In this document: one piece after another, positions 29,700-50,411 of the stretch
How the letters are laid out: every line of letters begins with the position of its first letter
Numbering within the stretch: position 1 is the stretch's first letter
Assembly: GCA_049793155.1 (NCBI GenBank)
Contig: JBARBN010000228.1
Location: 14,644 to 78,643, forward strand
Length of the DNA: 64,000 bases
Reading direction: 5' to 3'
Origin: Nitrospirota bacterium
Lineage (GTDB): Bacteria > Nitrospirota > UBA9217
The notes under the pieces: generated by a model
Databases searched by the model: none
Seen by the model: only the letters and a program-made list of their open reading frames with translations
What the model was told of the DNA's origin: nothing
Program-made: the position numbers and the translations under genes

Positions 29700-30449
29700 T
29701 TAGGCAACTGTCTTCCTACGGAGACCGACGAGACCCATCAGACCCGAGCCGAAGAGGTAGATAGCAGCCGGGATCGGCGTAGCTTGCGCGACCAGTTGCG
29801 TGGAGCCGTCAGCGAAGGTACGAATCGTAGCGATGCTCGTGCCTTGTGCTCCGGAACTCGGATCAGAGCCGTAGTAATAGAGAACCTGGTCAACATAGCT
29901 CGAAGTAGCAAGCGCCCCCAGATTCTTCTCGGCATCGCCCGATGCAAGATAATTGCCCATCGTTCCGATCATGGTTCCGCCGCCATTCATCATGTTCCAG
30001 TAGGAATACGTACCGGTCTGTGCAACCGTTGCATTGTTGCCGACTGCGGCGCCACGGTAAGTATCCAGAGTGCTACCTGCAGCTGGACTGAATGACCCCC
30101 AGAACGCATAGGGGTTGATGTTACCGGCGTTTGCCGGACCGCTGGCATAGGCAGAACCATTGCCGCCATTCGCGGTATTGGACAGGATGAAGTAGGCGAC
30201 ATTGGTATTGGCCAATGTCGCGCCTGACCCTAACTTGCTAAGGCTGAAGGTGTCCGTATTGAAGGCCACATTGGTGGTAAGAGGTGCGCTCGCTGAAAAA
30301 GCACCGAGGTCTGTTGCGTACTCCGTGCCGGCGCCGGTCCCGCTATATACCACGCGGATCAGATCGCCTTCGTCGAAAGCGGCCATTGCCTGACCGGCGA
30401 AACTGACCATGAGCATCATGGCTACAAAAAGCAAAATAATTTTTTTCAT
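29700..30449 (-). CDS. Secreted protein with a VPLPA-type PEP-CTERM exosortase sorting signal
   Basis: Signal peptide MKKIILLFVAMMLMVSFAGQAMA. The C-terminus ...ATPIPAAIYLFGSGLMGLVGLRRKTVA has a P-x-P-A motif, a TM helix and a basic cluster. Confidence 0.65.
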   Translation of the reverse strand: MKKIILLFVAMMLMVSFAGQAMAAFDEGDLIRVVYSGTGAGTEYATDLGAFSASAPLTTNVAFNTDTFSLSKLGSGATLANTNVAYFILSNTANGGNGSAYASGPANAGNINPYAFWGSFSPAAGSTLDTYRGAAVGNNATVAQTGTYSYWNMMNGGGTMIGTMGNYLASGDAEKNLGALATSSYVDQVLYYYGSDPSSGAQGTSIATIRTFADGSTQLVAQATPIPAAIYLFGSGLMGLVGLRRKTVA

Positions 30450-30845
30450 TGTTTTGTTTCCTCCTGAGTTTTTTAAAATCAATCGAAATCGTTCCTACCC
30501 AGCGTTTCGTGCGTGTATATCTGGAGACGCTGCGTATGCTTTTTACCCTCAGGCGACCCGGCCATCCACCTCTGGTGGACCCGCTGGTTTTCCGTCACCC
30601 GGTTGCCCGGGCTTTGGCTTTATTCTGAAGGCCGGATGCTGACTTGCGCAGACATCCTACCGAGTTGTATACATCATCTATGCTGTCTCTATCTCCCCCT
30701 CCTTTCTTTTATGGATGTATTGAGTGGGCCTGTCAATTTGAACTGTAATAAATCATTACGCGGCAGGCTCCCGACCCGGGCTTTCTGTTACCTTATTCAG
30801 GTCAGCTAAGTACCCTGGTACTAAATAAAAGACGATAAATAAAAA

Positions 30846-30892
30846 AAGCCCGAATCCTGATAAGAACTCACTCTTATCCATGATTCGGGCTT
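30846..30892 (-). terminator. Intrinsic terminator (hairpin plus U7) downstream of gene 31056..32228; part of repeat copy 1
   Basis: AAGCCCGAATC-ctgataagaactcactcttatccat-GATTCGGGCTT. In the minus direction it is followed by UUUUUUUAUUUAUCGUCUUUUAUUU. The loop carries its own inverted repeat (gataagaa/cttatc). Confidence 0.6.
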
Positions 30893-30940
30893 TCTGGTGC
30901 GCGACTGAATTCTGTCGGTCAGCAAAGGACCCTGATGATC
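30846..30940 (-). repeat. Leader/terminator repeat element, copy 1 (about 95 nt)
   Basis: Hairpin plus TTTCTGGT(A/G)C plus the CGGTCAGCAAAGGACCCTGA(T/G)GAT box. About 85% identical to copy 2 at 32237..32335. Confidence 0.6.
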
Positions 30941-30994
30941 ACTTGTTCATTTTATGCTTCTTGATCGTTAACGTAGCGAATACTACACGTCGCA

Positions 30995-31035
30995 GGTTAC
31001 ATGGTGATGACAGTTCAATGAAAGTTGTGTGAAGA
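30995..31035 (-). promoter_or_regulatory. Direct-repeat array X1 (TGATGA-type)
   Basis: ACATGGTGATGAcagtTCAATGAaagtTGTGTGAag. About 70% identical to array X2 at 32794. Confidence 0.4.
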
Positions 31036-31055
31036 TTTACGGCTCCGTCCTTCGG

Positions 31056-32228: not shown

Positions 32229-32236
32229 AATAACGC

Positions 32237-32285
32237 AAAAGCCCGAATCGGGATAAGAATATGATCTTATCTCTGATTCGGGCTT
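32237..32285 (-). terminator. Terminator-like hairpin in the 5' leader immediately before the start codon of 31056..32228 (candidate attenuator); part of repeat copy 2
   Basis: AAAGCCCGAATC-gggataagaatatgatcttatctct-GATTCGGGCTTT. In the minus direction it is followed by UUUGCGUUAUU and then the ATG. Confidence 0.5.
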
Positions 32286-32335
32286 TCTGGTACCCTGGCG
32301 ATATAATCCGCCGGTCAGCAAAGGACCCTGAGGAT
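32237..32335 (-). repeat. Leader/terminator repeat element, copy 2 (about 95 nt)
   Basis: Same modules as copy 1. A partial third copy (box plus a different hairpin) lies at 44441..44514. A box-only match TCAGCAAAGTACCC lies at 26977..26990. Confidence 0.6.
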
Positions 32336-32338
32336 ATG

Positions 32339-32473
32339 CTACTTTTTTAGAATTTCTTCAAATTTCTCGATCCGCTCGACGCTTCCGCGGGTGAAATTGA
32401 TCCTGATGTATCCTGTGAATTTTTTGTCCATAAGAGCTTTAATTACTTCCATCATTTTTTTTATTTTTTCCAT
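32339..32473 (-). CDS. Small conserved protein S2 (44 aa), paralog of 26131..26325; absent from the ORF track because it is under 60 aa
   Basis: Hand translation of the reverse complement: ATG GAA AAA ATA AAA AAA ATG ATG GAA GTA ATT AAA GCT CTT ATG GAC AAA AAA TTC ACA GGA TAC ATC AGG ATC AAT TTC ACC CGC GGA AGC GTC GAG CGG ATC GAG AAA TTT GAA GAA ATT CTA AAA AAG TAG. Confidence 0.55.
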   Translation of the reverse strand: MEKIKKMMEVIKALMDKKFTGYIRINFTRGSVERIEKFEEILKK

Positions 32474-32556
32474 CGATCTCTGCTCTTTTCGTGGACATGC
32501 CTGATGTAGCTGAATGCTTTAGTTCCGGCTGTAGGGAACAATTTATAACATACAAT

Positions 32557-32600
32557 TGTTACATTTTGATGACCATTTAATTAAAGTTCCGTGAAATGAT
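32557..32600 (-). promoter_or_regulatory. Direct-repeat array B upstream of small protein S2
   Basis: aaTTGTTACAttt TGATGACcatt TAATTAAagtt CCGTGAAA. It lies about 85 nt upstream of the S2 start. A TATAAA/TATGTT -10-like element lies beyond it in the minus direction. Confidence 0.45.
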
Positions 32601-32853: not shown

Positions 32854-34692
32854 TTACGAAAAATGCTTTCTGCCGCGGAATAACACAAGACACAAGACAG
32901 CCGCTAAGAATGCAAAACCAGCCGGGGAAACTGCTGGCACCGGTGTGGCGGTCTGAATTGCGGCAAAGGTTGCCTCGACAGTGTGCGCGGAGGTGACAGC
33001 GGCAATAGTATAGGTGAATGTTCCAACCGGATATTCAACTGCCGATACTGATGAGCCGTTATCCTTGAGAGCGACGAGTGTATACCCTGTCAACGGCTTG
33101 ATGGTAAAGAAGGCGCTGCTTCCATAATTGGCAGTCGGGCTGCTGGGCGTATTGGAGCCGCCCAGGGAGTTGGTGACCGTACCCACAAGGGTATAGCTGG
33201 TAATCACGGCGCCGCAGTTTGCCGTACTCCCTCCGTTCTGTCCAGTGCAGGTCCAGTACCATGGACCGGTTCCGGTAACTGTTGACGGGGTGCCGGCGGA
33301 ACAAAGGCCGGTTGTGGGTGCTGTGGTATAGGTCTGGCCGTTCGCGCTGCCGCACAGGCCGTTGATCGGGGGCGGCAGCCCCAGACTGGCTGCGAGATTA
33401 AGACGGGGTTTGACGATCGAATTGCGCGGATCGGTTATGGGAACCCCGTTCGTCGTCATGCGCGCTGTAGTCTGGTCAAGCGAGTCTGTAGGGAAAGCAG
33501 CCCTGAGTATGGCCACCGCGCCTGCCACGTGGGGTGATGCCTGCGATGTCCCTCCCATGGTAATGTTGGCCGCGGTGATCAATGCCCCCGGCGCCACCAT
33601 GGTCAGAAACGAGGCGCTGTTCGAGAAGCAGGTGACCTGATCTGCCGTTGTCGTAAAATCGGTGCAGATACCCCAGTTCAGTCCTCCTACATTGCTGTCA
33701 TAAACCGCGCCCACAGACACGACTCCCGGCGTGCAGGCAGGGCTTGCAATGCCGTTCGTATAGGCATCGTTGCCGGATGCCGCCACCGGGAGGATGCCTG
33801 CCGATCGAGTGTTATTGAGCGGCGTGACAAAAGGGTTGGTATGACTGTTGCTGCATGGGGCGGCATAGTTGACATCGTCACCCAGGCTCATATTCAGGGC
33901 GACGATATTGTATGCGCTTTTATTGGTAATGGTCCAATTGATTCCGGCAAGGACCCAGTTGGTGTTCGAGGACCCGTTGGAAAATACGTTGATCGCAGCG
34001 ATTCGGGCGCCCGGAGCAACTCCGGCCACGATCCCGGCAACATTAGTGCCGTGATTGTTCGGATCGGTATTCAGCGTAAGGTTATTGCCGGTCACATCCA
34101 CAGAGGCGGCAACTTTACAATCTGAAGGAACTCCCGGCGCAGAGCATGAACCGAAAGCTGCGAGGGTATAGTTGATCCCGGTGTCGATGACCGCCACCCC
34201 CGAGCCGCTCCCGGTAAAGCCGGCCTGAATTGCCTGAGGCTGATTGATGAGGGGCAGACTTTGGGTTAATGAAGGATAGATAGGACGATTTTCATAGACC
34301 GCCACGACCTCGGGCCGCGTCAGGAAACGTTCGAGGGCCGGACGACTTTTGAATCGAATAAAGGACATGGGGAGATGGCTATAGTCCTGAACAAGCTCGG
34401 CTTCGCCGGGCAACATCACTGCCTCGGCCCGCTGCTTGATCTCCCGGTAGCGGTCCGCCCTGAAAGAAAGGATGGCATCATCATCGTGCGGTAGATGAGC
34501 ACGGTCCCTTCGGGCTGTTGCCTCTGTTTCAACATCGCGATCATCATAAAGAACGATCACGTCCTGCGGGACACCAGCCGCCAGACTGTCCAGCACACCC
34601 TGGGGAAGGGCCGGCGCGGCGATTGCGGTCAGCGACGCGGTGCAGCAGATCGTTGCGATGGCGTATATAACGAGACGTCTGAGGATACACAA
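32854..34692 (-). CDS. Subtilisin-like serine protease (peptidase S8) with a C-terminal PEP-CTERM-like sorting signal
   Basis: Catalytic triad contexts VAVIDTGI (Asp), NNHGTNVAGIVAG (His) and GTSQASPHVAGAVAIL (Ser). Signal peptide. The C-terminus ...ATPVPAVSPAGFAFLAAVLCLVLFRGRKHFS carries the sorting tail. Confidence 0.8.
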   Translation of the reverse strand: MCILRRLVIYAIATICCTASLTAIAAPALPQGVLDSLAAGVPQDVIVLYDDRDVETEATARRDRAHLPHDDDAILSFRADRYREIKQRAEAVMLPGEAELVQDYSHLPMSFIRFKSRPALERFLTRPEVVAVYENRPIYPSLTQSLPLINQPQAIQAGFTGSGSGVAVIDTGINYTLAAFGSCSAPGVPSDCKVAASVDVTGNNLTLNTDPNNHGTNVAGIVAGVAPGARIAAINVFSNGSSNTNWVLAGINWTITNKSAYNIVALNMSLGDDVNYAAPCSNSHTNPFVTPLNNTRSAGILPVAASGNDAYTNGIASPACTPGVVSVGAVYDSNVGGLNWGICTDFTTTADQVTCFSNSASFLTMVAPGALITAANITMGGTSQASPHVAGAVAILRAAFPTDSLDQTTARMTTNGVPITDPRNSIVKPRLNLAASLGLPPPINGLCGSANGQTYTTAPTTGLCSAGTPSTVTGTGPWYWTCTGQNGGSTANCGAVITSYTLVGTVTNSLGGSNTPSSPTANYGSSAFFTIKPLTGYTLVALKDNGSSVSAVEYPVGTFTYTIAAVTSAHTVEATFAAIQTATPVPAVSPAGFAFLAAVLCLVLFRGRKHFS

Positions 34693-34901: not shown

Positions 34902-35216
34902 TCATGGTTCGATGATCAATTTGCCAACGGGTTCATCCGTAGGAAATTCTATCTGTGCAGCGAATCCTTCTAGAATTCTGAGAAACGCTTCCTGCTTATC
35001 CCGCCCTTCAACCTGCCAATAGGCGTGCGCGATATGCCTCATCAAGTCTGCAATCATGATCCCATAAGCCGCCGGGTCTTTCCAGGCGTCGGCTCTGACC
35101 GTAACGTAAGGAGCGCCATCAACATACCAGACGCTGAATAGCTCGAAGGCATCCGCCGCTTGAGTAGTCTTGTTCGGTGCGGGCAATGCCTTCATTTTCG
35201 GAATCACTGATGCCAT
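34902..35216 (-). CDS. Hypothetical small protein (104 aa)
   Basis: Intact ORF with coding-like composition: WYVDGAPYVTVRADAWKDPAAYGIMIADLMRHIAHAYWQVEG. A direct-repeat array lies about 135 nt upstream. Confidence 0.45.
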   Translation of the reverse strand: MASVIPKMKALPAPNKTTQAADAFELFSVWYVDGAPYVTVRADAWKDPAAYGIMIADLMRHIAHAYWQVEGRDKQEAFLRILEGFAAQIEFPTDEPVGKLIIEP

Positions 35217-35351
35217 GTCTCATCACCTTTTCGGTATGCATGCCGGATGCTGCAGGGGGCATCGTATGTGGCGCCCCTTCAATAGGCCTTACTGTTCCAT
35301 AACTGCAAAAGATTTATAATTAATGCAATGCACGCGTCACCCTATCAGTTG

Positions 35352-35395
35352 ATTGTTACAAGGTTATGAAGGACAGGTTAATTTATAATTAATTT
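35352..35395 (-). promoter_or_regulatory. Direct-repeat array C upstream of 34902..35216
   Basis: gaTTGTTACAagg TTATGAAGgac aGGTTAATTtat aATTAATTT. Almost identical in architecture to array D. Confidence 0.5.
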
Positions 35396-35412: not shown

Positions 35413-36456
35413 CTAAATATTTTCCGGAGCATTGATAACTGCTTTTCGCCGATAGCGGATCATGTAAATCAACAGCAGTAGAGGGAAGAGGTATTGCCCG
35501 ACTGCGATGAGGGTCAGGTCCATTGTTCTGGCGGATGTGTAATTAAAGTACGCCAGCAAAACATTGTCAATCCGGTGAAAAAGATGGATGACAAAAAGGA
35601 GCCCCAACCCCGCGGCGAGCCCCTTGATTTTCATTGCCCACGGTACTGAGCTAACAGCAAGGACCAGCGACGTAAAGATGACAATGCTGAAGGTTTCATA
35701 GTAGACGGTGGTTTCCTGCGCGAGGCCTACATGGTGATCGAAGAGAGAAAAACCCAGGACCATAAACCAATCCAGGAACCGGATATACCCGTGATGGACC
35801 TTCATCCATACAAGAAATAGACCGCTGGATATCAGCACAAAGCGTACAAAAAACCACGCTGCTTTCATGGGCATGCCCTTGTTCGACTCTTCCCGGTCGA
35901 TCCATTTCAGCCACAGGATGCAGGCCAGCAGGACAAATAACATAGTGAATACCTGGCCCAAATACACATGAAAAACCTCAAAGAGCCCCCGGTCATACCG
36001 ACTTACCATGAAGGTGAGTGCCAGCCGGAACAGGTTGCCCATATAGAGTAAGGGGATTCCCATTGCAAGACCGGTTGTCTTCTGTCGCGCCGTAGCGGGA
36101 TGAAAGATAACGAAGCTCAGGAAAAGGCCCGTTGTGAAGAGCGGAGTGCACTCGGGGATGATCTGGAACGCCAATGCGCCTTCCGATACCGTGTCGTTGA
36201 CAGTCGATGCGGGAATGCCGAAAGCATTCAGGACCAGGACCAGGGTCGCCGCAACGTGTTCGTTTATCGGCTTTGTGAAAGACGGCGGCAATGCGTTAAT
36301 GATCGCATAGATCGCAATGCAGGAAAGGGCGAACGCAGCGGCAAAGCGAAAACTACGCGACCGGATCATATTCGATATTAAAGATCCGAGAGAATCGCCT
36401 TTTTTTTCGGCGGCCTTCTGTTTCTCATGTCGATGCTTTGATTTCTGTTTTGCCAT
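35413..36456 (-). CDS. Exosortase (EpsH/Xrt family transpeptidase)
   Basis: About 8 TM helices. A conserved Cys sits in IIPECTPLFTTGLFLSF (exosortase E-C-[ST]-G/P-like motif) and Arg residues in FRLALTFMVSRYDR. It shares the window with five proteins carrying matching C-terminal sorting tails. Its start is 3 nt from the upstream stop. Confidence 0.6.
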   Translation of the reverse strand: MAKQKSKHRHEKQKAAEKKGDSLGSLISNMIRSRSFRFAAAFALSCIAIYAIINALPPSFTKPINEHVAATLVLVLNAFGIPASTVNDTVSEGALAFQIIPECTPLFTTGLFLSFVIFHPATARQKTTGLAMGIPLLYMGNLFRLALTFMVSRYDRGLFEVFHVYLGQVFTMLFVLLACILWLKWIDREESNKGMPMKAAWFFVRFVLISSGLFLVWMKVHHGYIRFLDWFMVLGFSLFDHHVGLAQETTVYYETFSIVIFTSLVLAVSSVPWAMKIKGLAAGLGLLFVIHLFHRIDNVLLAYFNYTSARTMDLTLIAVGQYLFPLLLLIYMIRYRRKAVINAPENI

Positions 36457-37859: not shown

Positions 37860-37977
37860 ATCTCCTCCTTAATTTAAAGCTATTGTACTAGCCGATAGTC
37901 GGCGACCGGTAGGTTTAGTTGGAAGACATGGATCATTCGCAGCCGATCATGTTTCTTATTCATGCGTTATGCTACGC

Positions 37978-38022
37978 TATCAGAATATTGTTACAGATTT
38001 ATGAAGGGCAGGTTAATTTATG
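37978..38022 (-). promoter_or_regulatory. Direct-repeat array D upstream of the phosphoesterase-exosortase operon
   Basis: taTTGTTACAgat TTATGAAGggc aGGTTAATTtat gATTAATTC. It lies about 120 nt upstream of the phosphoesterase start. Confidence 0.5.
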
Positions 38023-38052
38023 ATTAATTCTGTTGAAGAAAAGGGATTATAA

Positions 38053-38077
38053 TAAAAAAAAAAGGAGCTGCAAAAAA
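38053..38077 (-). terminator. Intrinsic terminator downstream of the transposase remnant
   Basis: GGAGCT-gcaaaaaaccgat-AGCTCC. In the minus direction it is followed by U10. Confidence 0.45.
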
Positions 38078-38132
38078 CCGATAGCTCCCCGAACATGAAC
38101 AAGCAGACGCCGCGCCTCATTAATTCGTACTG

Positions 38133-38303
38133 TTATGCCGCGCAATCACGGTCCTTGTGCCATTCCTTTCCATGCGTGTGATACCGCCTCAGCCACTTAT
38201 AAAACCATTGTTTAGACCGGTTGAGACTGATATAAATGCTCTTCGGCGATTCGCCCTGCAGGATGTAGCGCCGAACTGCTGCTTTTCTGATCTCTTCTTC
38301 CAT
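38133..38303 (-). pseudogene. IS630-like transposase N-terminal helix-turn-helix fragment (remnant)
   Basis: MEEEIRKAAVRRYILQGESPKSIYISLNRSKQWFYKWLRRYHTHGKE then stops. A transposase helix-turn-helix, but no DDE domain follows. Confidence 0.45.
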
Positions 38304-38441: not shown

Positions 38442-41400
38442 CTAAGAATGACGCCGTCTCCGGGATATATATCCTGCCAGCATCGCTACCGTCGCCATCA
38501 TCCCCCATATCCCGAGGGCCGGGACCGAATCCGCCTGCGATGCTGAGATCGTCATCGATCCAGCGGCGCTTCCCTGATAGTTGGGGTCGCTGATCGTCGC
38601 GACCACGGTGTAATTGCCCATGGCGGACGGAGCAGTGGCAGAACCATTGTAGGTCACCGTAACAGCACGTCCGGCAGGATTAGTGGTTACTGTAACACTC
38701 TTGGCCGAGCCGTCGTAGGTGAAGCTCATTGTACCCAGTGTGACAATCGCCGATGCTTTATCGATCGTGTAGGTGCCGCCGGCCAAGCCGGAATAGCCTG
38801 GCTGGGCAACTGTTGCCGAAACGGCGTACGCTCCCGCGTTGACCGGAACAGTGATGCCGCCGTTGTAGGTCACGTTGGTTAATAGTCCCGGCGGAATCGT
38901 GGTCACGCTGACCGGCTTTGCCGTTCCATCGAATGTGGCTGACAATGCGCCGAGAGTCATGATCGCTTCCGTTGTATAGGGCGGTGCGGCAGTGTAGTGC
39001 ACAGAAGACTGTGCGGCAGCGGGTGTCGGTTCCACATTATTGTTACTGTCAATTGCCTGGCTGTAGAACTCGTAATAGCCATAGCCCTGCGAATAATTAA
39101 ATGTTGCCGTATACGGCGCTGTCGTACTGGTTGCAAACTGCGTCCAGGCACTCCAGGATGTGTTGTCCGAGGAATAGCGGTAGTAGAACTTCACTTGCGC
39201 TATGGTCGCGCCGGAGGCCTGCGTATTTATCTGCAATACCGGTCCATTGCTGCCGTACTCCTTGGCGTCAAAGCCATAGCTTGGCGGTGTAGCGTCAGTC
39301 GAGCTTTCAGTTACAGGCTTGACGACAAGAGAGATGAGTTTATTGCCGCCCCACTTGGTCTGGGCAAAGGATGTGACATCCCACTGATACCAGATATTGC
39401 TCGTAGCGGAATCAAGGGTCTGGGTGGAAACTGCAGCTCCGAGAGCCGGTTGGGTGTTCCAGGTAATGCCGGTCTCTGTCCAGGTGTCGTCAGAGCCGCC
39501 ACGTACTTCGGCCGGCATTGGCGCTCCGGCAACCTTCCAGTTCCAGAGCTGGAGATTTGCGCTGGTAATGGTTGCGCCTGCCGGGATTGCGGAAAGATCG
39601 AACCTCAACCAGCCCCGCTCATTGCCGTAGCCGGCTGCGGCGCTTTGTACATACAGGTTAGTGCCGGACCCGTAATTGGTAGTCGGGTTTCCGCTGGCAA
39701 CCTGGGCATCGGCCACTGGTGTGAGGAAGTATGTTCCTGCGCTTGAAGAGGCGGATGCTGTCAGCGTGATTGGTGAGACGGTCGTCCCGGCCGGCGTAGA
39801 GTCTACTCTGGACGAAACAACGGAGGCCTCCGGTAAGCTTGAATTGGTTGTCGAGACGTTATCGCACCGGAACCTCAGCCCGTAGTTCTCCATGGTCGGG
39901 ACACCGGAAACGAGAAGTATATCCCCCACATTGCCAGGGACGGTCTTGTTCGCATAGCCGGTCGCGTCCATGAGCGTTATCGTCTGACCGTTCTGGTCGC
40001 TTACGGAGTTGGCGCCGGCTTTCCTGGCCAGGAACTCGACGTAGTGGTTCTTGGACTGGTCATTCCAGAAAGCGCCAATGGACGACATGAAGGCCGGCTT
40101 AGCCAGGCTGGCGTCGTGGCCGACGATATTGAATTCGACGCCATCGGAGTAGATCCCTTCCTGGTCAACAAATTCCGGGTTGCCGCCGTAGAAACTCCCC
40201 TTGCCCCAGGTTTCGATGATGTCTCCCGGTTTGAGGACACCGGTTTTGAAACCAAGGAAGCTGCGGTACATCTCCTGTTCAGCCAGATGATGCGCCGGAT
40301 TGATCGTACCATCGGCGTTGACCAGGTCTGTCGGGACCTGCTGAGAGCCGCGGCGCGCAAGGGTCTCGGGCGTGGCGCTCAGGAATCGGATGAAGGCGTC
40401 CTCGAAGGTCGTCTTGGTGTCGTTGTCGTTCATCATGGTGACGACCGCGCGGAAACCTCCCGAGAACTCGGTGTTCAGGTGATACCGTGGACCGCCGACC
40501 TGGTAGGCGTTGGCCTGGTCCGAATGCTGGCTCCGCATGAAATCAACGATCCCTTCGCGGCAGAGATAGGTCGAGGTGAGCGGGGCCGTGTCGGCCCAGG
40601 TCCAGTTGGCAGGAGGATGGGCATACATGTAGTTGTTGATCGCCACGGTATAGGTCTGATTCAGGTTGATCGGCTGACCATTGAACTTGACGCTCGCCGG
40701 TGTGCCATCATAGGCGGTCACATCCAGAGCGCTGGAGAAACCGGCGTTCATATTGGTTACCTTCAAAAAATTTACGATCTCCTGACCGCTCATGTTGACT
40801 CGATAGAAAGAGTCGTCGTTCCAGGGGAAGGTCTCGTAGATCTGCAAATAGGTTACCGGTCCGGCGGGGATATCGGCGCGGACACCGCCGCCGGCCTCGA
40901 TGGCGAGATCGGTTTGTCCAAAGAGCTGCTCGGACTTCCAGCGCATGGCGTCGCAGATCCACTGGCCCGCGGTATTGTTGCCGCTCCAGGGGTATTCGTC
41001 CGCCGACCACCATTTCATGTCATTGTCGAGCATCAGGTCGTCGGCAGTGTAGCCGACGACTTCATCCACCGGGTGGCCGGGGTGGTCGTTATTGTATTGT
41101 GTGGTCAGATCATTGAGCAGCGTCTGCACATCCGGGTCGGGTGAGATGTCTGCATCGCGGATCACGTGATTCGTGGCGCTGAAGTACTTGCCCGTGTCGG
41201 TCAACTGCAGTTCGCCGATGTATTTCATATAACTGTTCGCTTCGGTGAAGATCGTTTTGTAATTGAGCATCTCCGGCTGCCAGACGGTGTCGGCAATCGT
41301 GTGCCAGTGCCCGGTGACAACTACCTCGGGGAGTTTGGCCGCTCCGTTATCGGCCAGCACCGGTGCGGTCGGATCGACCAGGGCGCTGTGTCCGCTGTGC

Positions 41401-42947
41401 GCGGCAAGAATGACAAGATCGACATTATTGGGAGCATTGCGCAGCTCATTCACATAGTCGGACATATTGCACACAGCGCTGCCGCTCCATGCGCAGGGAA
41501 CGACTTCCAGGATATCGGCAAGGGTCGGCCCTATTTCCGCCGTATCGATGGTGTAGCCGATGATGCCGATCTTTTTACCATTGATCGTAACGACGTTGGA
41601 TGCGGCGAAGTACGGAAGGTGAGTATTTTTGTCCCGAACATTGACCGAAAGCACGGGTACACCGGAATTCCTGAGCGAGGTCAGATTGCTGATGTAGTTT
41701 ATATCGCGGACATCATGGTTGCCGACAACGACCGCGTCCATGCCGCGTCCGCGCTGGGCATTCAGTTTATTGGAGAGCAGGGTATAGAACATCGTCATAC
41801 TGCCATTGCCGTTCATATCGCCGATTGGGTTTCCCTCGGAGATATCACCTGCATCGATGACCAGCGAGTTCGGTTGAGCCGCGGTAAGCTGCAGCATTTC
41901 GGCGGCCAGGTAGGCCGCACCGCCTACGTCTTCAAACTGGCCGGAACCGGTCCCGTGGGCCGGGATGATCATCTTGTGCGGCGTCACCCGGGCATGGGTG
42001 TCGTTCACGTGGAAGATTGTCAAACCGGCTGAGGTCGCGGTAAAGTTCGCGGTGCAGGACTTGTTGTCCTCCATGACCACGGTGATCGTGGCGCTGCTGC
42101 TGCTCGAACAACCGCTCCACCCGCTGAACGCGGAGTTGTTCCCTGCTGTGGCGGTGATGACGGCGTTGCTCCCCGAGGTATATGGGTTGGCGACACCGGA
42201 TATGGTTCCGCTGCCGTTGCCCGCCGTGGCGGTGGTCAGCGTGTAATTCTGGGTTGCCTGGCCATCGGCAACGGTCCCCTGTATCTCAAAATCGCCGGCC
42301 GTGGTGTTGGCGACATCGAAGATATACCAGGTGCCGCTTGCTCCGCCTCCATAGTTGACTATCCGGAAGGTCACGGCCGTTCCGGCTGGAACGTTTTGTA
42401 ATGCGCTAATCGCTGAGAGGTCAATAGCTGCCAGCGAGGCCCCCGAGGACGCGCTGGAAGAATAGCCTAACGTTGTTATGTCGGCAAAAGCACCTGTCCC
42501 CACCTGGTACTGGAGAACGCCGTTTGCAGGTCCGGTTCCAGAGCGCCGGTAGTCGAATTTGCTGATCGAGCTGAACGAGACCTGCTTGCCGGTGTTAGCC
42601 GTGATCGTGAAGGAGGCAAACTTGTTGTCGGTAACGGCCGCAGCAGCATTTGCACTGTTCCAGGCAACGCCCCCCCAGGCCCGTGCGGCGCCGGAGCCGG
42701 TAATACCGACACCCGAGCCGCGGGTCAGGCCGACGACGGTCAGGTTTGGATCGCTCACCGACGCGGCCAGCGGCGAAGGCCCAAAATTATTGGTACCCCC
42801 GGGGAGGGCATGAACATCAAAGCCCGCCAGGGTGGCCGCGAAAACAGACCCGGCAACCGCCGTCAGCCCGAGGGTAATGATAAGGAAAGCAATTAAAAAT
42901 CTTTTAAGATGGGCTGCAAAGATCCGGTTGCCTGAATGCATGGTCAT
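38442..42947 (-). CDS. Giant (1501 aa) multidomain cell-surface 5'-nucleotidase/metallophosphoesterase with an exosortase sorting signal
   Basis: Signal peptide. InlB-B-repeat-like segment (TLTTATAGNGSGTISGV...AFSGWSGC). Calcineurin-like metallophosphatase motifs HVNDTHAR, DAGDISEG and GNHDVRD. DNRLRE-like domain (LYVQSAAAGYGNERGWLRFDLSAIPAGATITSANLQLW). Two MBG-like repeats. The C-terminus ...SVPALGIWGMMATVAMLAGYISRRRRHS carries the sorting tail. Confidence 0.75.
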   Translation of the reverse strand: MTMHSGNRIFAAHLKRFLIAFLIITLGLTAVAGSVFAATLAGFDVHALPGGTNNFGPSPLAASVSDPNLTVVGLTRGSGVGITGSGAARAWGGVAWNSANAAAAVTDNKFASFTITANTGKQVSFSSISKFDYRRSGTGPANGVLQYQVGTGAFADITTLGYSSSASSGASLAAIDLSAISALQNVPAGTAVTFRIVNYGGGASGTWYIFDVANTTAGDFEIQGTVADGQATQNYTLTTATAGNGSGTISGVANPYTSGSNAVITATAGNNSAFSGWSGCSSSSSATITVVMEDNKSCTANFTATSAGLTIFHVNDTHARVTPHKMIIPAHGTGSGQFEDVGGAAYLAAEMLQLTAAQPNSLVIDAGDISEGNPIGDMNGNGSMTMFYTLLSNKLNAQRGRGMDAVVVGNHDVRDINYISNLTSLRNSGVPVLSVNVRDKNTHLPYFAASNVVTINGKKIGIIGYTIDTAEIGPTLADILEVVPCAWSGSAVCNMSDYVNELRNAPNNVDLVILAAHSGHSALVDPTAPVLADNGAAKLPEVVVTGHWHTIADTVWQPEMLNYKTIFTEANSYMKYIGELQLTDTGKYFSATNHVIRDADISPDPDVQTLLNDLTTQYNNDHPGHPVDEVVGYTADDLMLDNDMKWWSADEYPWSGNNTAGQWICDAMRWKSEQLFGQTDLAIEAGGGVRADIPAGPVTYLQIYETFPWNDDSFYRVNMSGQEIVNFLKVTNMNAGFSSALDVTAYDGTPASVKFNGQPINLNQTYTVAINNYMYAHPPANWTWADTAPLTSTYLCREGIVDFMRSQHSDQANAYQVGGPRYHLNTEFSGGFRAVVTMMNDNDTKTTFEDAFIRFLSATPETLARRGSQQVPTDLVNADGTINPAHHLAEQEMYRSFLGFKTGVLKPGDIIETWGKGSFYGGNPEFVDQEGIYSDGVEFNIVGHDASLAKPAFMSSIGAFWNDQSKNHYVEFLARKAGANSVSDQNGQTITLMDATGYANKTVPGNVGDILLVSGVPTMENYGLRFRCDNVSTTNSSLPEASVVSSRVDSTPAGTTVSPITLTASASSSAGTYFLTPVADAQVASGNPTTNYGSGTNLYVQSAAAGYGNERGWLRFDLSAIPAGATITSANLQLWNWKVAGAPMPAEVRGGSDDTWTETGITWNTQPALGAAVSTQTLDSATSNIWYQWDVTSFAQTKWGGNKLISLVVKPVTESSTDATPPSYGFDAKEYGSNGPVLQINTQASGATIAQVKFYYRYSSDNTSWSAWTQFATSTTAPYTATFNYSQGYGYYEFYSQAIDSNNNVEPTPAAAQSSVHYTAAPPYTTEAIMTLGALSATFDGTAKPVSVTTIPPGLLTNVTYNGGITVPVNAGAYAVSATVAQPGYSGLAGGTYTIDKASAIVTLGTMSFTYDGSAKSVTVTTNPAGRAVTVTYNGSATAPSAMGNYTVVATISDPNYQGSAAGSMTISASQADSVPALGIWGMMATVAMLAGYISRRRRHS

Positions 42948-42971: not shown

Positions 42972-43448
42972 CTACTCAGCATGGGCCATCACACTCTTCC
43001 GGACGACAGGAACCTGCTCCGGCATGCCCTTGCCCAGCGCTTCTTGCACGATCCTGAGGAGTTCGAACGTGTTCACGGGCTTGATAATGTATTCGAAGAT
43101 GCCTGGATCAACAGCCTTGGAATAACTGTCGATATCACCGTGTTCGACAAGAAGGACCATCGGGACATCGGGATGCTGACGCTTCAGTGCTTCAACTAAT
43201 TCCAGACCGTTTATGCCTGGCAAGCGATAGTCGGTTATGACGAGATCGAACCTCCTGACGCCGAGGATCGAAAAATGGTGCGCTGATGGTGCATCATAAA
43301 AGACAGCGATGCCGTAGCCCTTCCTGCGCAGTACCTCTGACATGTACTTCAAGCGTACATGGTCGTTATCGACCAGGAGGACCGTCTGCTGACCCTCGCA
43401 TGCGGGCGATCCGTCCGGGTCGTGCATACTGTTAAGATGATCATTCAT
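42972..43448 (-). CDS. Single-domain response regulator (CheY-like receiver)
   Basis: VLLVDNDHV...FDLVITDYRLPGINGLELVEALK...PMVLLVEHGD gives the phospho-acceptor Asp context and a conserved Lys region. Confidence 0.75.
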   Translation of the reverse strand: MNDHLNSMHDPDGSPACEGQQTVLLVDNDHVRLKYMSEVLRRKGYGIAVFYDAPSAHHFSILGVRRFDLVITDYRLPGINGLELVEALKRQHPDVPMVLLVEHGDIDSYSKAVDPGIFEYIIKPVNTFELLRIVQEALGKGMPEQVPVVRKSVMAHAE

Positions 43449-43683: not shown

Positions 43684-44376
43684 TTAGCTCTGTTTTCTTC
43701 TCATTTCTATCAACCCCGCGAGGCCTGAACCGAAAAGCCATACTGCGGCCGGAATCGGGGTGGCAACAGGGTTTGGATCAGGTGTGCCGGCGATAAAGAT
43801 GGTATTGCCGCCGGCATCAGTGGTACGAATGGCCGCAGTGGTAGTGCTCGGATTGGCGGTCATCCTGGGATAGAGGCTGAAGTTTGCCGTTGTTCCATAG
43901 CCGACGAGATCAACGAGGTTGGCGGACGTTGCAACGGTGCTTGCGCCGGTTGCAGTCGTATCGAACAATGCCAGCTTACCCGCGGTAGCGGACAAGTTGA
44001 GACCAGCGAAAGTACCCAGGGTCAGATCATAAGCCGGGTCGGGTGCCGTGCCGACGAGGCCCGTTCCCCGTCCTTCTTGAATGAGAAAATAGCTGTTTGG
44101 ATTGATGATACCGGACAGGTTGTGCGAGTTCGATGGGCCAAAAGTCGTTGTATTGGTAGCACTTGCATACTGGAGGCTGTAGCCGCTCAGATCGATCGCA
44201 GAAGTCCCGTCATTGTACAACTGGACCCAATCGTTGCTATACAGAGGATTAGTACTCGTTGCGCCGCCTCCCCCGTAGATCTGGCTGATGACAAGATCCG
44301 CATGGGCGGACTGGGGCGCTGCCATCAGCATTACCGTGAACATAACTGCTGTCAGTGTTAGCATTACCCTTTTCAT
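43684..44376 (-). CDS. Secreted protein with a VPLPA-type PEP-CTERM sorting signal
   Basis: Signal peptide MKRVMLTLTAVMFTVMLMAAPQSAHA. C-terminus ...VATPIPAAVWLFGSGLAGLIEMRRKQS. Confidence 0.65.
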   Translation of the reverse strand: MKRVMLTLTAVMFTVMLMAAPQSAHADLVISQIYGGGGATSTNPLYSNDWVQLYNDGTSAIDLSGYSLQYASATNTTTFGPSNSHNLSGIINPNSYFLIQEGRGTGLVGTAPDPAYDLTLGTFAGLNLSATAGKLALFDTTATGASTVATSANLVDLVGYGTTANFSLYPRMTANPSTTTAAIRTTDAGGNTIFIAGTPDPNPVATPIPAAVWLFGSGLAGLIEMRRKQS

Positions 44377-44481: not shown

Positions 44482-44552
44482 TCTGTTTCCTTTATAAGGT
44501 CAGCAAAGGGCCCATGTCTGATTACGAATTCTTGCGTATTAAATCATATTTT

Positions 44553-44595
44553 CATTACAAGATGATGAAGGATCCGTTAATTTGCCGTTAAATTA
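44553..44595 (-). promoter_or_regulatory. Direct-repeat array E upstream of the VPLPA-CTERM gene 43684..44376
   Basis: cATTACAAgatgaTGAAGGatcc GTTAATTtgcc GTTAAATT. A TATGAT -10-like element follows in the minus direction. Confidence 0.45.
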
Positions 44596-47079: not shown

Positions 47080-48228
47080 TCACTCCGCCGTGTCCACGAA
47101 CGGGCACTCCGGGTCGGGAGCGAAGATGTCGCCGGAAACAAACCCGCTCACGGCGCGGCACCCTCCCTTGCAGATCTTGAGATAGTCGCATGATCGGCAG
47201 GGCTCCGGGGCCCGCTCGATCCAGCTGCGCAGACGAGAGAGGTGCTCGGACCCGTTCCACAGCCGGGGCAGGTCTAGAATGCTCTCTTCTCCTGACAAGA
47301 AGGAGCAACCCGCGAACCTGCCGTCGGAGCGGACCCCCACAAGAACATTGCCGGCCTCGCACCCGTAGACCGAAAGCTGCTCCATGGTCTTTTTGTCCGG
47401 CCTATGCCAGCAGAACATCGGAACGAAAGAGCAGTCGATCTTTACCGGTACCCGGTGTTCCAGGGAAAGGCGTCTGATCATCGGATAGAATTCCCGGTTC
47501 TGATCCCGTGTTAATCTCCTGTCAAAATAGTCCTGCTTCCCCCGTCCCTTGGGTTTTAAGCGAAGGAGTTCCACGTCGGCAAGTCCACGCTCCCCGGCAA
47601 AGCTGAGCACGCCGGCCAGTTGATCGAAATTCCGGCGCGTCACGACGCAGTTCAGTCCGACCTTGACACTGGCCTTCAAAAGCAGATCTACCGCTCGCAC
47701 CGCTGCCGCGAGAGCAGCTGGGTCCCGGTCTGTTCCTTCGGGGCTGTCGAGCCCGTCGATACTTACGTTGACCTGACCGAACACGCGGCACCGTGCGGCA
47801 ATTTCATTGGTCATTAAAAATCCATTCGTGGTCAGGTTGGGGACGATGCCGCGGCTGCGCACGTAGGCGGCCAATTCAAAAAAGTCGGGACGCTCCAGCG
47901 CTTCTCCGCCTCCCAGCGCCATGTGGAAAACACCCATCCCGGCCAGCAGGTCCACGGCCTTTCGGAAATCCCCCGTAGACAGCTCGTTCGCATCTTTTTC
48001 CCCCGAATCCATGTAGCAGTGCCCGCACCGCAGGAAACAGGAGTTGGTAACCGAAAAATGGACCTCAAGGGGAGCGGAGAGAAGACCATCTTCGGGTTTA
48101 TCCCACAGGGGGCTGTGCTTATGACCCAGGCTGCGCATGAAGTCTTGGTCCACGTGCACCAGCACCGGAGGATCTTCTAGGGCCAGTATCCCGCCGAACG
48201 ATTCGAACCGATGCTTCATAACGCTCAT
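47080..48228 (-). CDS. Radical SAM / SPASM-domain enzyme (peptide-maturase-like)
   Basis: CFLRCGHC is a Cx3Cx2C radical-SAM cluster motif. The C-terminal SPASM cysteines are CSFVPMFC...CEAGN...CSF and CRSCDYLKICKGGC. An N-terminal extension of about 60 aa precedes the core. Confidence 0.8.
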   Translation of the reverse strand: MSVMKHRFESFGGILALEDPPVLVHVDQDFMRSLGHKHSPLWDKPEDGLLSAPLEVHFSVTNSCFLRCGHCYMDSGEKDANELSTGDFRKAVDLLAGMGVFHMALGGGEALERPDFFELAAYVRSRGIVPNLTTNGFLMTNEIAARCRVFGQVNVSIDGLDSPEGTDRDPAALAAAVRAVDLLLKASVKVGLNCVVTRRNFDQLAGVLSFAGERGLADVELLRLKPKGRGKQDYFDRRLTRDQNREFYPMIRRLSLEHRVPVKIDCSFVPMFCWHRPDKKTMEQLSVYGCEAGNVLVGVRSDGRFAGCSFLSGEESILDLPRLWNGSEHLSRLRSWIERAPEPCRSCDYLKICKGGCRAVSGFVSGDIFAPDPECPFVDTAE

Positions 48229-48479
48229 CTCTGATTCTCCCCACGACTGACTACGGGCGTTTCCTTCAATGTGTCCAGCGGCACCGCCTCCCCGGCCTTT
48301 GCCGCTGCAAGGACCGCGGCAAGCGTGTTGAAGAGGACCATCATGGCCGCTCCGGCGGTGAAAAAGACCACCGTATCTACGCCGATACTGCTTGAGTTCG
48401 GGTTGTAGCCGGTCTTGATCTTCAGGATTTGTCCTTTCATTTCCCCTACTTTCCTGTTTTGATTTTCTTTTTTATCCAA
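48225..48479 (-). CDS. Small membrane peptide (71-84 aa); its stop overlaps the start of the radical-SAM/SPASM gene (ATGA); candidate substrate or partner
   Basis: ...MKGQILKIKTGYNPNSSSIGVDTVVFFTAGAAMMVLFNTLAAVLAAAKAGEAVPLDTLKETPVVSRGENQR. One TM helix, no Cys. The likely start is the internal MKGQ preceded by AGGAAAGTAGGGGAA. Confidence 0.45.
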   Translation of the reverse strand: MDKKENQNRKVGEMKGQILKIKTGYNPNSSSIGVDTVVFFTAGAAMMVLFNTLAAVLAAAKAGEAVPLDTLKETPVVSRGENQR

Positions 48480-48504
48480 CTTATGCTCATTCTTCCCCGG
48501 TGCG

Positions 48505-49629
48505 TTACAGAAAGCTCACTTTATATTTGTACCGGAACGTATCGGCAAAAATGTCCATGAGCGCCGGTCCGTTGGGATAGTATACAAAGAATAGATAAAG
48601 CACTGCCGTAGTCATCAGCAGGGTCAGGACAGGGCTCGCCCACCGAAGCGCCCGGGACCGGGTCTGCCAGAACTTTCCCTTTGTCAAAAGCATAAGCCAG
48701 AAGAGGATCGTCAGGTTGAGTCCTGCGACAATGTAGACCACCTTATCAGGGATGACGATCGGATAGCCCCCGGTCTCTATGGAATAGTACGTCGGCATTC
48801 TGACGGCACTCAGCAGCACCCACACAAGCGCCAGTATCAGGAAATAGCCGATCGAGGACCGGGTCAGCAGTTTCCAGGGCCTCATCAGCAGGGCCGCAAC
48901 CCAGAGAATCACTACGACTCCCCACGCGACCCCTGCCCAGACTGTTGTCTCTTTCCAGTGGCGGCCTGCCGCTTCGTAGGCCGCCTGGTCGCTTGAAGAG
49001 AGTGTTTTTCCGTTGTTACCGGAAATGGACTGAAAGGCGAGATAGCTTTGCCGGCTCTTGTCCATGCGGGCGTAGGCGTATCCCAATTCGCTCAGCACCT
49101 TGTCCTTTAAAATAAATTCGGGATGGGCCTTCAGCAGCGCCTCGAACTTCTGCGCCATGACTTCATCGCCCTGATCGGCGGACAGGATCGCTTGATAGGT
49201 TTTAAAAGCCTCCTCTTGGTTCATCAGCTTTTCCAGAGAAGCCAGTTTCTCCTTGTAAAAGGGGAACTGACGGGGGTCGGCATACTTCTCAAGAAATTCC
49301 CGGTCCCATTTGATAGCCTTCTTTACATCGACGAGGTTGTTTTCGTATATGGTCCCCAGCATCTGTACGGCATAACGACGCTCCTCGCTTTCAGGATGCT
49401 TCTCTGCAATTTCCCGGTTTAAGGCTGCGGCCTCGGCGTAGCGGCTGTTGATAAATGCGTGCTGGGCCTTCTTCTTCAACGCATTCACTGCCGGGCTGTC
49501 TTGGGCCGCATATCCGGCAGGCGGTAGAAGTAACAAATTTATTAGGAGCGCAAGAATAGACAAAGGAACGAGCCTGATGCGCCGGATTGCGGAAAGCGTG
49601 CGCGACGGAATAACAGTTATAATTTTCAT
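48505..49629 (-). CDS. Membrane protein with a periplasmic TPR-like domain followed by 5 TM helices
   Basis: Signal/TM, then a helical repeat region (YAEAAALNREIAEKHPESEERRYAVQMLGTIYE...), then a hydrophobic C-terminal half. Confidence 0.5.
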   Translation of the reverse strand: MKIITVIPSRTLSAIRRIRLVPLSILALLINLLLLPPAGYAAQDSPAVNALKKKAQHAFINSRYAEAAALNREIAEKHPESEERRYAVQMLGTIYENNLVDVKKAIKWDREFLEKYADPRQFPFYKEKLASLEKLMNQEEAFKTYQAILSADQGDEVMAQKFEALLKAHPEFILKDKVLSELGYAYARMDKSRQSYLAFQSISGNNGKTLSSSDQAAYEAAGRHWKETTVWAGVAWGVVVILWVAALLMRPWKLLTRSSIGYFLILALVWVLLSAVRMPTYYSIETGGYPIVIPDKVVYIVAGLNLTILFWLMLLTKGKFWQTRSRALRWASPVLTLLMTTAVLYLFFVYYPNGPALMDIFADTFRYKYKVSFL

Positions 49630-49783
49630 TTTTTCGTCTCCATCATTTCAGGCCTCTGATGGTACTCCTTGTTTATTACAAGAGTATGACGATATAATTA
49701 TTTTTTTGTTACAGCGGAAACTTGAAGTGATATTGAAACGGGATAAATCCACTTTGAAAACCGTTTGTCTTTGCTGAAAAAAA

Positions 49784-49802
49784 GGGGGGCCCGAAGGCCC
49801 CC
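49784..49802 (-). terminator. Intrinsic terminator downstream of 49833..50411
   Basis: GGGGGGCC-cgaa-GGCCCCC. In the minus direction it is followed by UUUUUUU. Confidence 0.6.
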
Positions 49803-49832
49803 AAGAGCTCATCTTTATTCTTCACTAATTAC

Positions 49833-50411
49833 TTACACGGTCATCCTTCTGCGGATGCCGGCAAGGCCCATCACGCCGGAGCCGAACAGCCAAGCGGCTG
49901 CCGGGATCGGAGTTGCAGCCACAGTCACCTGGCTGCTGTTACTATTGATAGCAGCGCCATTCGCATTCATATCGATAGTAGTTGCAAACCCACTCGGATC
50001 ACTGGTCAAAAGCGACGTTACACCATCTGCCCCGTAGAAAGACAGCCCAAACGAGTTGTCGGCGCTGCCTGCGAGGTTAAGAGTAAAATGTGCGCCGTTG
50101 CCAAACGTTAACGCCTGGAAGTAATCGTTCCAACCAGTTGTGTTGTTGATTGTGACGGCGCCGGGAAGCGCTCCCGTGACGTCACCCGTTAAGATTGAAG
50201 CGCCAAGCGCAGCATCGGAAGTGAAATTTGAAATGACTGCGCTGGCGACGCCCGGATTGAGCCCGGGGTTGAACTGAAGCTCCAGATACCCGGTTTGCCC
50301 GGAAATGGACGATGTGTTCACGTCGAAATTGTAGGAATAATCCGCGAAGGCCGACGTGGCTGCAAACATGATCGCCGCAATGACGAGAAGCTTGATCATA
50401 TGTCGTTTCAT
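49833..50411 (-). CDS. Secreted protein with a VPLPA-type PEP-CTERM sorting signal
   Basis: Signal peptide. C-terminus ...VAATPIPAAAWLFGSGVMGLAGIRRRMTV. An intrinsic terminator lies downstream at 49784..49802. Confidence 0.65.
   Translation of the reverse strand: MKRHMIKLLVIAAIMFAATSAFADYSYNFDVNTSSISGQTGYLELQFNPGLNPGVASAVISNFTSDAALGASILTGDVTGALPGAVTINNTTGWNDYFQALTFGNGAHFTLNLAGSADNSFGLSFYGADGVTSLLTSDPSGFATTIDMNANGAAINSNSSQVTVAATPIPAAAWLFGSGVMGLAGIRRRMTV

Follow-up and report, generated by a model that had tools for sequence, protein, structure and literature searches.

A 64,000-nucleotide stretch of contig JBARBN010000228.1 from a Nitrospirota bacterium (assembly GCA_049793155.1; the whole stretch is referred to here as the window) encodes an exosortase together with five proteins whose C-terminal tails resemble sorting signals. 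We consider it probable that this exosortase, a member of the exosortase H (XrtH) family, is encoded in an operon with a Pho-type promoter and has a large secreted 5'-nucleotidase as its cognate cargo, with an S8 protease as a probable second cargo, while the three remaining tails, which are of the VPLPA type, stand apart from this system. This reading joins family assignments, signal classes, synteny and motif statistics, which are results of the analysis, with cleavage, anchoring and phosphate regulation, which we infer. It departs from the original prediction for this DNA, which had described an exosortase with a cohort of VPLPA-type PEP-CTERM substrates, most of them phosphate-scavenging enzymes. 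The features that carry the argument are the following:

35413..36456, minus strand: long-form exosortase H (XrtH), 347 amino acids (aa); TIGR04177 and TIGR04178
36459..37859, minus strand: AcpA-type acid phosphatase (PLC/phosphoesterase family), 466 aa; TIGR03397 and PF04185
37974..38026, minus strand: Pho-box-type promoter of AcpA-XrtH, four 11-bp units and then TGATAGCGT as the -10 element
38442..42947, minus strand: secreted 5'-nucleotidase, 1501 aa, with Metallophos, 5_nucleotid_C, CBM96/DNRLRE and two MBG domains
38445..38528, minus strand: 5'-nucleotidase sorting signal of the PALGxWG class, SVPALGIWG followed by MMATVAMLAGYIS and RRRRHS
32854..34692, minus strand: S8 subtilase with the tail TPVPAVSPAG...RGRK; PF00082, 97 bits

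The protein encoded at 35413..36456 passed the curated exosortase H model TIGR04177 with 90 bits against a cut-off of 86, a narrow margin, as well as the exosortase/archaeosortase signature model TIGR04178 (51.2 bits over residues 97-186, cut-off 23). The next-best subfamily model was XrtX, for which 56.7 bits compare with a cut-off of 170, and no XrtA- or XrtD-type model matched at E<0.01; XrtD (TIGR04152) is the exosortase that we take to be specific for VPLPA tails. An alignment of 20 homologues (52-94% identity) shows no variation at three residues, C103 (in the motif IPECTP), R144 (GNLxRL) and H163 (HVYLGQ). Furthermore, homologues are named exosortase H in their source records, and the predicted structure is all-helical and membrane-like. 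The search with exosortase hidden Markov models and the invariant Cys/Arg/His residues thus bear out the earlier assignment of this gene to the exosortases; on sequence grounds, the protein is an XrtH-type and not a VPLPA-type exosortase. A CAAX protease was ruled out for this gene, as only exosortase/archaeosortase models match.

The exosortase domain of XrtH spans approximately residues 37-187 and is accompanied by an extra four-helix membrane domain (residues ~193-340, with the motifs YYETF and HLFHRIDN); residues 193-347, which comprise this part, are encoded at 35413..35880 on the minus strand. The extra domain is conserved, with YYETF, H291, H294, R295, N298 and D313 being invariant, and it is fused to the exosortase core without exception across approximately 131 clusters (50% identity). 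The 158 positions of the XrtH model do not cover it, and no relative or fold match was detectable for it. More than 200 homologues of this long form (~345 aa) were found in Nitrospirota, Thermodesulfovibrionia, Syntrophobacterales and Syntrophorhabdales, many of them from peat. A large XrtH subfamily carries a conserved second membrane domain.

A scan of every open reading frame (ORF) in the window found exactly five proteins with a tail composed of a short motif, a hydrophobic helix and an R/K cluster, the same five that had been predicted. However, judged by their motifs, these tails are not of the single TP(I/V)PA(A/V) class then proposed but of two signal classes, three of the VPLPA/PEP-CTERM type and two of an XrtH-linked type. 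The latter is represented most clearly by the 5'-nucleotidase, which scored 32 bits against PF00149 and 64 bits against PF02872 (both past the cut-offs) and whose translation shows the metal-binding motifs NDTH, DAGD and GNHD. Its full tail is SVPALGIWGMMATVAMLAGYISRRRRHS, in which V-P-A-L-G-I-W-G is spaced identically to the I-P-T-L-x-x-W-G of the IPTLxxWG-CTERM signal. A tail profile was built from the protease tails of 14 relatives, leaving out the window and its 94% sister, and in a search of 339 window ORFs its sole significant match was the 5'-nucleotidase tail (48 bits, E=1.4e-14). Ten tails of XrtH neighbours from relatives were also scored against the IPTL-CTERM model (cut-off 20.5): three passed, with 25.1, 22.6 and 22.2, and the scores of those failing include 18.5 and 14.8. 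Because three of the ten tails pass, we regard the PALGxWG class as a divergent branch of the IPTLxxWG-CTERM signal. A separate search with a 42-aa tail alignment, in which 734 candidates were scored, returned one 79-aa match and was uninformative. The assignment of the 1501-aa 5'-nucleotidase as the predicted cognate XrtH cargo in the window is supported.

The comparison of related loci covered 98 XrtH loci (designated by L numbers), for which 32 genome loci, 6 loci from the closest metagenomic relatives and 59 metagenome loci were fetched. The gene directly upstream of XrtH mostly ends in xPALGxWG, a helix and RKRRK. Overall, 38 XrtH-neighbour proteins carry a PALGxWG tail, most of them encoded 0-160 bp upstream of XrtH, and these comprise 29 S53 proteases, 5 homologues of the 5'-nucleotidase, 2 proteins labelled S8 and 2 fragments; all 12 tailed neighbours that were tested are sedolisin/kumamolisin-type (S53) pro-peptidases. 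On this comparison, a protease (S53 or S8) is the ancestral and dominant cargo of XrtH across the 98 loci. The 5'-nucleotidase cargo, in turn, recurs in about five lineages. The gene order 5'-nucleotidase - AcpA - XrtH - DUF5076 - S8 is kept in L034/L035 (94% XrtH identity). In L038 (77% XrtH identity), the orthologous nucleotidase is 84% identical and ends in the tail PVPALGVWGMM…, and the AcpA slot is taken by two unrelated genes. Tailed nucleotidase homologues were also found near more distant XrtH in L048 (61%) as well as L060 and L070 (56%), the gene in L060 being located 163 bp upstream of XrtH. Moreover, L036, an 80% relative, encodes a canonical S53 protease whose tail, SVPGLGIWGMMATAAILAGYASWNRRKR, nearly matches that of the window nucleotidase.

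Up to four long-XrtH paralogues occur per genome, and each of them adjoins a cargo gene of its own, whose tail is of a distinct variant (PALGxWG or GPALSILAA…), as in the sets L006, L014, L016 and L025 of one metagenome-assembled genome and L012, L018, L027 and L030 of another. The XrtH paralogues with a GPALS-type neighbour tail all fall into one clade (8/8) of a neighbour-joining tree. Because the paralogues cluster by the tail class of their neighbours, each beside its own cargo, the tail sequence follows the lineage of the sortase and not the cargo, and this co-variation argues for a narrow XrtH specificity. We propose that, in the lineage of the window, the nucleotidase took a cargo slot that is held by an S53 pro-protease in sister lineages. 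In L036, a short ORF (6602..6769) located just upstream of the S53-XrtH pair shares 78% identity with ~55 aa of the window 5'-nucleotidase; it may be what is left of a nucleotidase gene in a lineage whose cargo is now a protease. Two further loci from Thermodesulfovibrionia, L005 and L015, encode a 157-aa ORF (7871..8344 and 9429..9902, respectively) that is located downstream of the Pho box and ahead of XrtH and weakly matches the N-terminal (CBM48-like) region of glycogen-branching enzyme.

The S8 tail scored 4.3 bits against the PALGxWG profile and thereby ranked second of the 339 window ORFs, a score that is not significant. However, S8 orthologues abut XrtH in L005, L015, L031, L067 and L090, and their tails, which read VPALS, VPAFS or VPALSQWG, tie the VPAVS tail of the window to the same class. 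The S8 tail is therefore probably a degenerate form of the 5'-nucleotidase-type signal, and the protease a second XrtH cargo.

Directly ahead of XrtH lies the gene for AcpA, which scored 467 bits against TIGR03397 (cut-off 363) and 287 bits against PF04185 and has a signal peptide but no sorting tail. Only 2 nt separate the AcpA stop from the XrtH start (TAA-GT-ATG), in agreement with the earlier suggestion that the exosortase is coupled to a PlcN/AcpA phosphoesterase. Co-transcription of AcpA and XrtH from the Pho-box-type promoter at 37974..38026 is supported by this arrangement, and the promoter is kept at the orthologous position in L034/L035. Across the 98 loci, AcpA beside XrtH is confined to the lineage of the window itself. 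Between the 5'-nucleotidase and AcpA genes, one further feature was found:

38133..38300, minus strand: 56-aa HTH_23-like (transposase N-terminal) fragment

It is followed by a stem-loop with a T10 run (about 38050..38090). The fragment may mark a recombination that put AcpA ahead of XrtH. An orthologous ORF in L038 is labelled HTH_23.

The Pho-box-like arrays noted in the original prediction are strongly confirmed, being far more numerous than chance would allow, and they extend well beyond AcpA-XrtH. The core TCATN5TGTAAY has 9 exact matches in the window, compared to 0.15 expected, all of them on the coding strand and all intergenic. In the aligned sites, four in-phase 11-bp units of the form T(A/C)A(C/T)-N7 are directly followed by TGnTAnAAT, an extended -10 element, and at least eleven promoters in the island share this four-unit array. 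The exact boxes precede AcpA-XrtH, the DUF5076-S8 unit, the LTD gene (then the response regulator and the 5'-nucleotidase), VPLPA1 with the PstS-like gene, p421, an FKBP-like gene, a TPR membrane protein, a hybrid kinase and a pentapeptide-repeat gene. One-mismatch boxes precede pstS and a NusG paralogue. Features of these promoters not yet introduced are:

34902..35216, minus strand: DUF5076 protein, whose gene opens the Pho-box-driven unit with the S8 gene (promoter at 35339..35391)
53263..53315: exact-box promoter upstream of the pentapeptide-repeat gene, then the purple acid phosphatase and NF038129 genes
58127..58179, minus strand: pstS box, with one mismatch and an extra TGTAAC unit
27038..27074: two one-mismatch Pho-like boxes at the NusG paralogue

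Among the related loci, an exact box lies ahead of pstS in L003, boxes precede protease-XrtH operons in L005, L009, L015, L022, L031, L060, L062 and L084, and boxes are kept at orthologous promoters in L034 and L038. Over 1.1 Mb of loci, 42 boxes were counted on the XrtH strand and 3 on the other, and a reversed control pattern gave 0. The PhoB box of D. vulgaris has been defined experimentally as yGTnAC, and that of E. coli shows a 7+4-bp periodicity (PMC3333781), with the E. coli Pho box given as CTGTCAT-N4-CTGTCAT (PMC3333781, PMC4415409). The TGTAAC hexamer fits the former and the 11-bp phasing fits the latter (PMC3333781). We interpret the array as a Pho-type box, from which regulation by phosphate would follow.

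The three other tailed proteins of the window, with the genes beside them, are:

29700..30449, minus strand: VPLPA1, a 249-aa beta-sandwich protein with a VPLPA-type tail; Pho-box promoter at 30980..31032
28356..29615, minus strand: PstS-like binding protein (weak match), following VPLPA1
43684..44376, minus strand: LTD-domain protein with a VPLPA-CTERM tail; PF00932, 60 bits; Pho-box promoter at 44538..44590
42972..43448, minus strand: response regulator, between the LTD and 5'-nucleotidase genes
49833..50411, minus strand: NF038129-family PEP-CTERM protein with a VPLPA-type tail; NF038129, 119 bits against a cut-off of 65
50422..52179, minus strand: purple acid phosphatase, without a sorting tail

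Their tails share the form TPIPAA(A/I/V)(W/Y)LFGSG and are matched by other PEP-CTERM-family tail models as well. Against the VPLPA-CTERM model (TIGR03370, cut-off 25.35), the isolated tails of VPLPA1, the LTD protein and the NF038129 protein scored 22.4, 26.5 and 28.4; the full-length proteins scored 16.9, 22.2 and 24.5, all under the cut-off. Two of the three TPIPAA tails thus reach the cut-off as isolated peptides, and none does so in the full-length protein. The S8 and 5'-nucleotidase tails are not members of this class, as they gave no VPLPA match; they matched IPTL-CTERM and midcut-by-XrtH weakly. Conversely, the VPLPA tails gave no score against the PALGxWG cargo-tail profile. None of the three proteins is recognisable as an enzyme or phosphatase, and the beta-sandwich of VPLPA1 had no significant match among solved structures. 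The claim that the cargo consists predominantly of phosphate-scavenging enzymes thus has to be given up, as the 5'-nucleotidase alone qualifies.

VPLPA1 lies 84 bp ahead of the PstS-like gene, and at least 13 loci have kept this arrangement. The NF038129 gene follows that of the purple acid phosphatase after 10 bp, a pair that is also present in L034. The Pho box of VPLPA1 (30996..31010) is about 550 bp away, because a 606-bp gene-free gap (30450..31055) intervenes; L034 has a 232-aa PEP-CTERM protein (15849..16547) at this place. The LTD gene heads the gene string LTD - response regulator - 5'-nucleotidase. A terminator scan from the LTD gene to the response regulator/5'-nucleotidase genes found no clear terminator, the matches being not above those in shuffled sequence, and in L038 a VPLPA-tailed gene lies directly ahead of the 5'-nucleotidase, with the box upstream of both. 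Since XrtH paralogues co-vary with the tail class, it is more likely that the VPLPA tails are served by a separate exosortase elsewhere in the genome.

Following the paradigm of sortases, archaeosortases and exosortases, the 5'-nucleotidase would be exported by Sec, and its C-terminal helix would retain it in the inner membrane. XrtH would then cut it at the PAL-G motif via Cys103, together with Arg144 and His163, and pass it to an acceptor, leaving a processed enzyme that is kept at or released to the cell surface. There, the 5'-nucleotidase could free phosphate from nucleotides beside secreted AcpA, the purple acid phosphatase and the Pst importer.

Several points weigh against a Pho-type XrtH operon with the 5'-nucleotidase as its cognate cargo. 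The TIGR04177 score of XrtH barely exceeds the cut-off, the 5'-nucleotidase tail reaches 11.6 against the IPTL-CTERM cut-off of 20.5, and our literature search found no biochemical data on any XrtH. AcpA, the insertion-sequence-like fragment and the terminator-like hairpin lie between the 5'-nucleotidase and XrtH genes. Furthermore, while the original prediction had placed Pho-box-like arrays before both AcpA-XrtH and the 5'-nucleotidase, only the former was found where expected; no Pho box stands directly before the 5'-nucleotidase gene, the closest (44554..44568) being located before the LTD gene, 1.6 kb upstream. VPLPA-type genes are also frequent near XrtH (29 genes in 20 of the 98 loci), in two cases directly upstream of it (L059, 102 bp; L070, 223 bp), and neither the window nor the 10 kb around any XrtH locus yielded a further exosortase. 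These last observations favor an alternative in which the single exosortase of the window processes all five tails, VPLPA included, as parts of one surface phosphate-acquisition assembly. It would also accord with the location of the five tailed genes within 21 kb behind the same Pho-box-type promoters, with the 26 of 29 VPLPA-type genes that are on the same strand, with a VPLPA gene 1.2 kb upstream of XrtH in L019, and with the pairing of every VPLPA-tailed gene with a phosphate-related gene (PstS-like, purple acid phosphatase or 5'-nucleotidase). However, the VPLPA tails represent a separately curated signal class and are without a score on the cargo-tail profile, XrtH matches neither XrtA- nor XrtD-type models at the threshold applied, and the clustering of its paralogues by tail class argues for narrow specificity. 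Moreover, VPLPA gene density is flat with distance from XrtH (counted within the loci), and the three VPLPA proteins are not recognisable enzymes. Therefore, we consider processing of all five tails by one sortase possible but, on balance, unlikely. A wider variant, in which long-form XrtH forms the core of a phosphate-starvation-induced surface display in Nitrospirota and allied anaerobes, processes PALGxWG and VPLPA tails alike, maybe via its extra domain, and has VPLPA proteins that anchor or scaffold the tail-less PstS-like protein and purple acid phosphatase, strikes us as quite unlikely; if true, it would amount to an organised extracellular phosphorus-harvesting complex.

The regulatory part of the account can be challenged independently, as the motif could be the operator of another OmpR-family or a lineage-specific regulator, for instance one of general nutrient-scavenging or envelope genes, in which case the exosortase would not be specifically phosphate-regulated. 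Since the window contains no PhoB or PhoR gene, a further point against a Pho-type operon, the Pho-box label rests on the association with pstS and on the resemblance to known boxes. Moreover, relatives have the motif ahead of genes that show no clear connection to phosphate (protease-XrtH operons, a NusG paralogue at the head of a two-partner-secretion locus, an FKBP-like gene and a gene for a TPR membrane protein), and the pstS copy of the window has one mismatch. Nevertheless, the motif is found ahead of pstS in two genomes, and in the window it also stands before AcpA and before the operons of the purple acid phosphatase and the PstS-like protein; both the hexamer and the 11-bp phasing agree with PhoB boxes described elsewhere (PMC3333781), and genes for an aminolipid synthase and pst-phoU flank the island. 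We consider another regulator quite unlikely. It would be more drastic to regard the tails as plain C-terminal membrane anchors that have no functional relation to the exosortase gene. While the processing of XrtH substrates is a prediction, and while the activity of the analogous nuclease ExeM is barely affected by loss of its rhombosortase (PMC6085458), PALGxWG is kept before the helix across S53, S8, 5'-nucleotidase and repeat proteins, nearly always adjoins XrtH, and follows the sortase lineage, not the cargo, in its sequence. This explanation is extremely improbable.

The closest known system is XrtH (TIGR04177) with the IPTLxxWG-CTERM signal (TIGR04174), which was defined computationally in TIGRFAMs/NCBIfam. 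The window protein passes the model and has the same Cys/Arg/His core, the two signals agree in motif spacing and in the helix and basic cluster that come next, some tails of relatives pass the signal model, and the sortase is encoded beside its cargo. In contrast, the window protein has 347 aa compared to 158 model positions, owing to the fused four-helix domain, its motif is PALGxWG, and the window tail is under the curated cut-off. Furthermore, the typical cargo of XrtH relatives is an S53 pro-protease, whereas here a Pho-box promoter, a co-transcribed acid phosphatase and a 5'-nucleotidase cargo are combined. PEP-CTERM/XrtA and VPLPA-CTERM have been described as systems for exopolysaccharide-associated protein sorting (Haft et al. 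2006, as cited in PMC3333781). They share with the window the tripartite C-terminal signal, represented by three window tails including one NF038129 member. However, the exosortase of the window resembles neither XrtA nor XrtD, the island is without an exopolysaccharide locus, and the VPLPA genes lie behind Pho-box-type promoters, paired with phosphate-related rather than exopolysaccharide genes.

In function, the closest parallels are surface enzymes with unrelated sorting machineries. LPXTG-containing 5'-nucleotidases of Gram-positive cocci, such as AdsA of S. aureus, are anchored by sortase A. They resemble the proposed system in that a 5'-nucleotidase reaches the surface via a C-terminal sorting signal and a dedicated cysteine transpeptidase, but the sortase family is unrelated, the host here is diderm, and the proposed role is phosphate nutrition instead of immune evasion. 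ExeM and Xds are extracellular nucleases of Shewanella and Vibrio with a GlyGly-CTERM/rhombosortase system (PMC6085458, PMC6219818), and ExeM is an envelope-associated nuclease with an LTD domain in a species able to use extracellular DNA as a phosphorus source (PMC6085458). The likeness thus includes a phosphoesterase that degrades nucleic acids or nucleotides and is, or in the window would be, retained at the envelope, a signal composed of motif, helix and basic cluster, the association with LTD, and extracellular DNA or nucleotides as the phosphorus source. However, the sorting enzyme of the nucleases is a rhomboid serine protease, not an exosortase-type cysteine enzyme, the motif is unrelated, and LTD is fused to the enzyme in ExeM, whereas in the window it is a separate VPLPA-tailed protein encoded upstream. 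With regard to the promoters, the window resembles known PhoB/Pho-box regulons in its 11-bp-periodic direct repeats, which replace the -35 element and occur at pstS and phosphatase genes, and differs from them in the four T(A/C)A(C/T)-N7 units with a TGTAAC core as well as in a proposed regulon that holds an exosortase, protease or nucleotidase cargo and VPLPA-tailed proteins.

Our literature search found no paper on the physiology of XrtH, IPTL-CTERM or VPLPA-CTERM, XrtH/IPTLxxWG being known as database models, and no paper that ties exosortase or PEP-CTERM systems to phosphate scavenging. In agreement with the original view of the system as novel, the phosphate link and the cargo swap appear to be undescribed, while the sorting machinery is of a known kind. 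What stands of the exosortase-dependent phosphate system first proposed is one cognate phosphate cargo and a Pho-type promoter, not a cohort of VPLPA phosphatase cargos. The locus would give XrtH a testable physiological setting, with a Pho-type promoter, an acid phosphatase just ahead and a 5'-nucleotidase cargo. Moreover, the cargo slot appears modular (S53, S8, repeat protein or nucleotidase), with the tail following the sortase, and PEP-CTERM-class proteins in this Nitrospirota lineage are tied to phosphate-related operons, not to exopolysaccharide loci. Peat and wetland soils, in which the recycling of organic phosphorus is important, are the origin of many related genomes. If the proposed reading is true, a sortase-dependent surface nucleotidase would add to the mechanisms of bacterial phosphorus scavenging and provide a tractable model substrate for exosortase biochemistry.

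Every gene between 26 and 64 kb of the window is encoded on the minus strand, and the region from ~27 to 63.5 kb looks like a phosphate-starvation (Pho-type) gene island. Its phosphate context consists of AcpA, the purple acid phosphatase, pstSCAB-phoU and an OlsF-like aminolipid synthase; the presence of pstSCAB-phoU, the purple acid phosphatase and the PstS-like binding protein is as originally reported. A counterpart with 100% identity to a protein of the window is annotated from a Nitrospirota metagenome-assembled genome. The transport operon is located as follows:

53623..58125, minus strand: pstS-pstC-pstA-pstB-phoU operon, with the Pho-box array at 58127..58179

Near this operon, the minus strand encodes an OlsF/GlsBA-like bifunctional aminolipid synthase (61648..63495; 394 bits, below the cut-off of 620) and, beside it, an LPG_synthase_TM protein (60516..61658), which suggests phosphorus-free membrane-lipid remodelling as part of the island. 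At the other side, a NusG paralogue heads a minus-strand region (13998..27026) with a ShlB/TpsB transporter and a 3464-aa TpsA-like giant protein, and L036 has the order NusG-ShlB-TPS likewise, downstream of XrtH. Lastly, an ORF of ~68 aa (MKGQILKIKTGYNPNSS…) at about 48240..48440 on the minus strand lies upstream of a radical SAM/SPASM gene (47080..48228), and L036 also contains such a small ORF with a SPASM radical SAM gene (1274..1480 and 1504..2652). The two genes may form a peptide-maturase pair inside the island.

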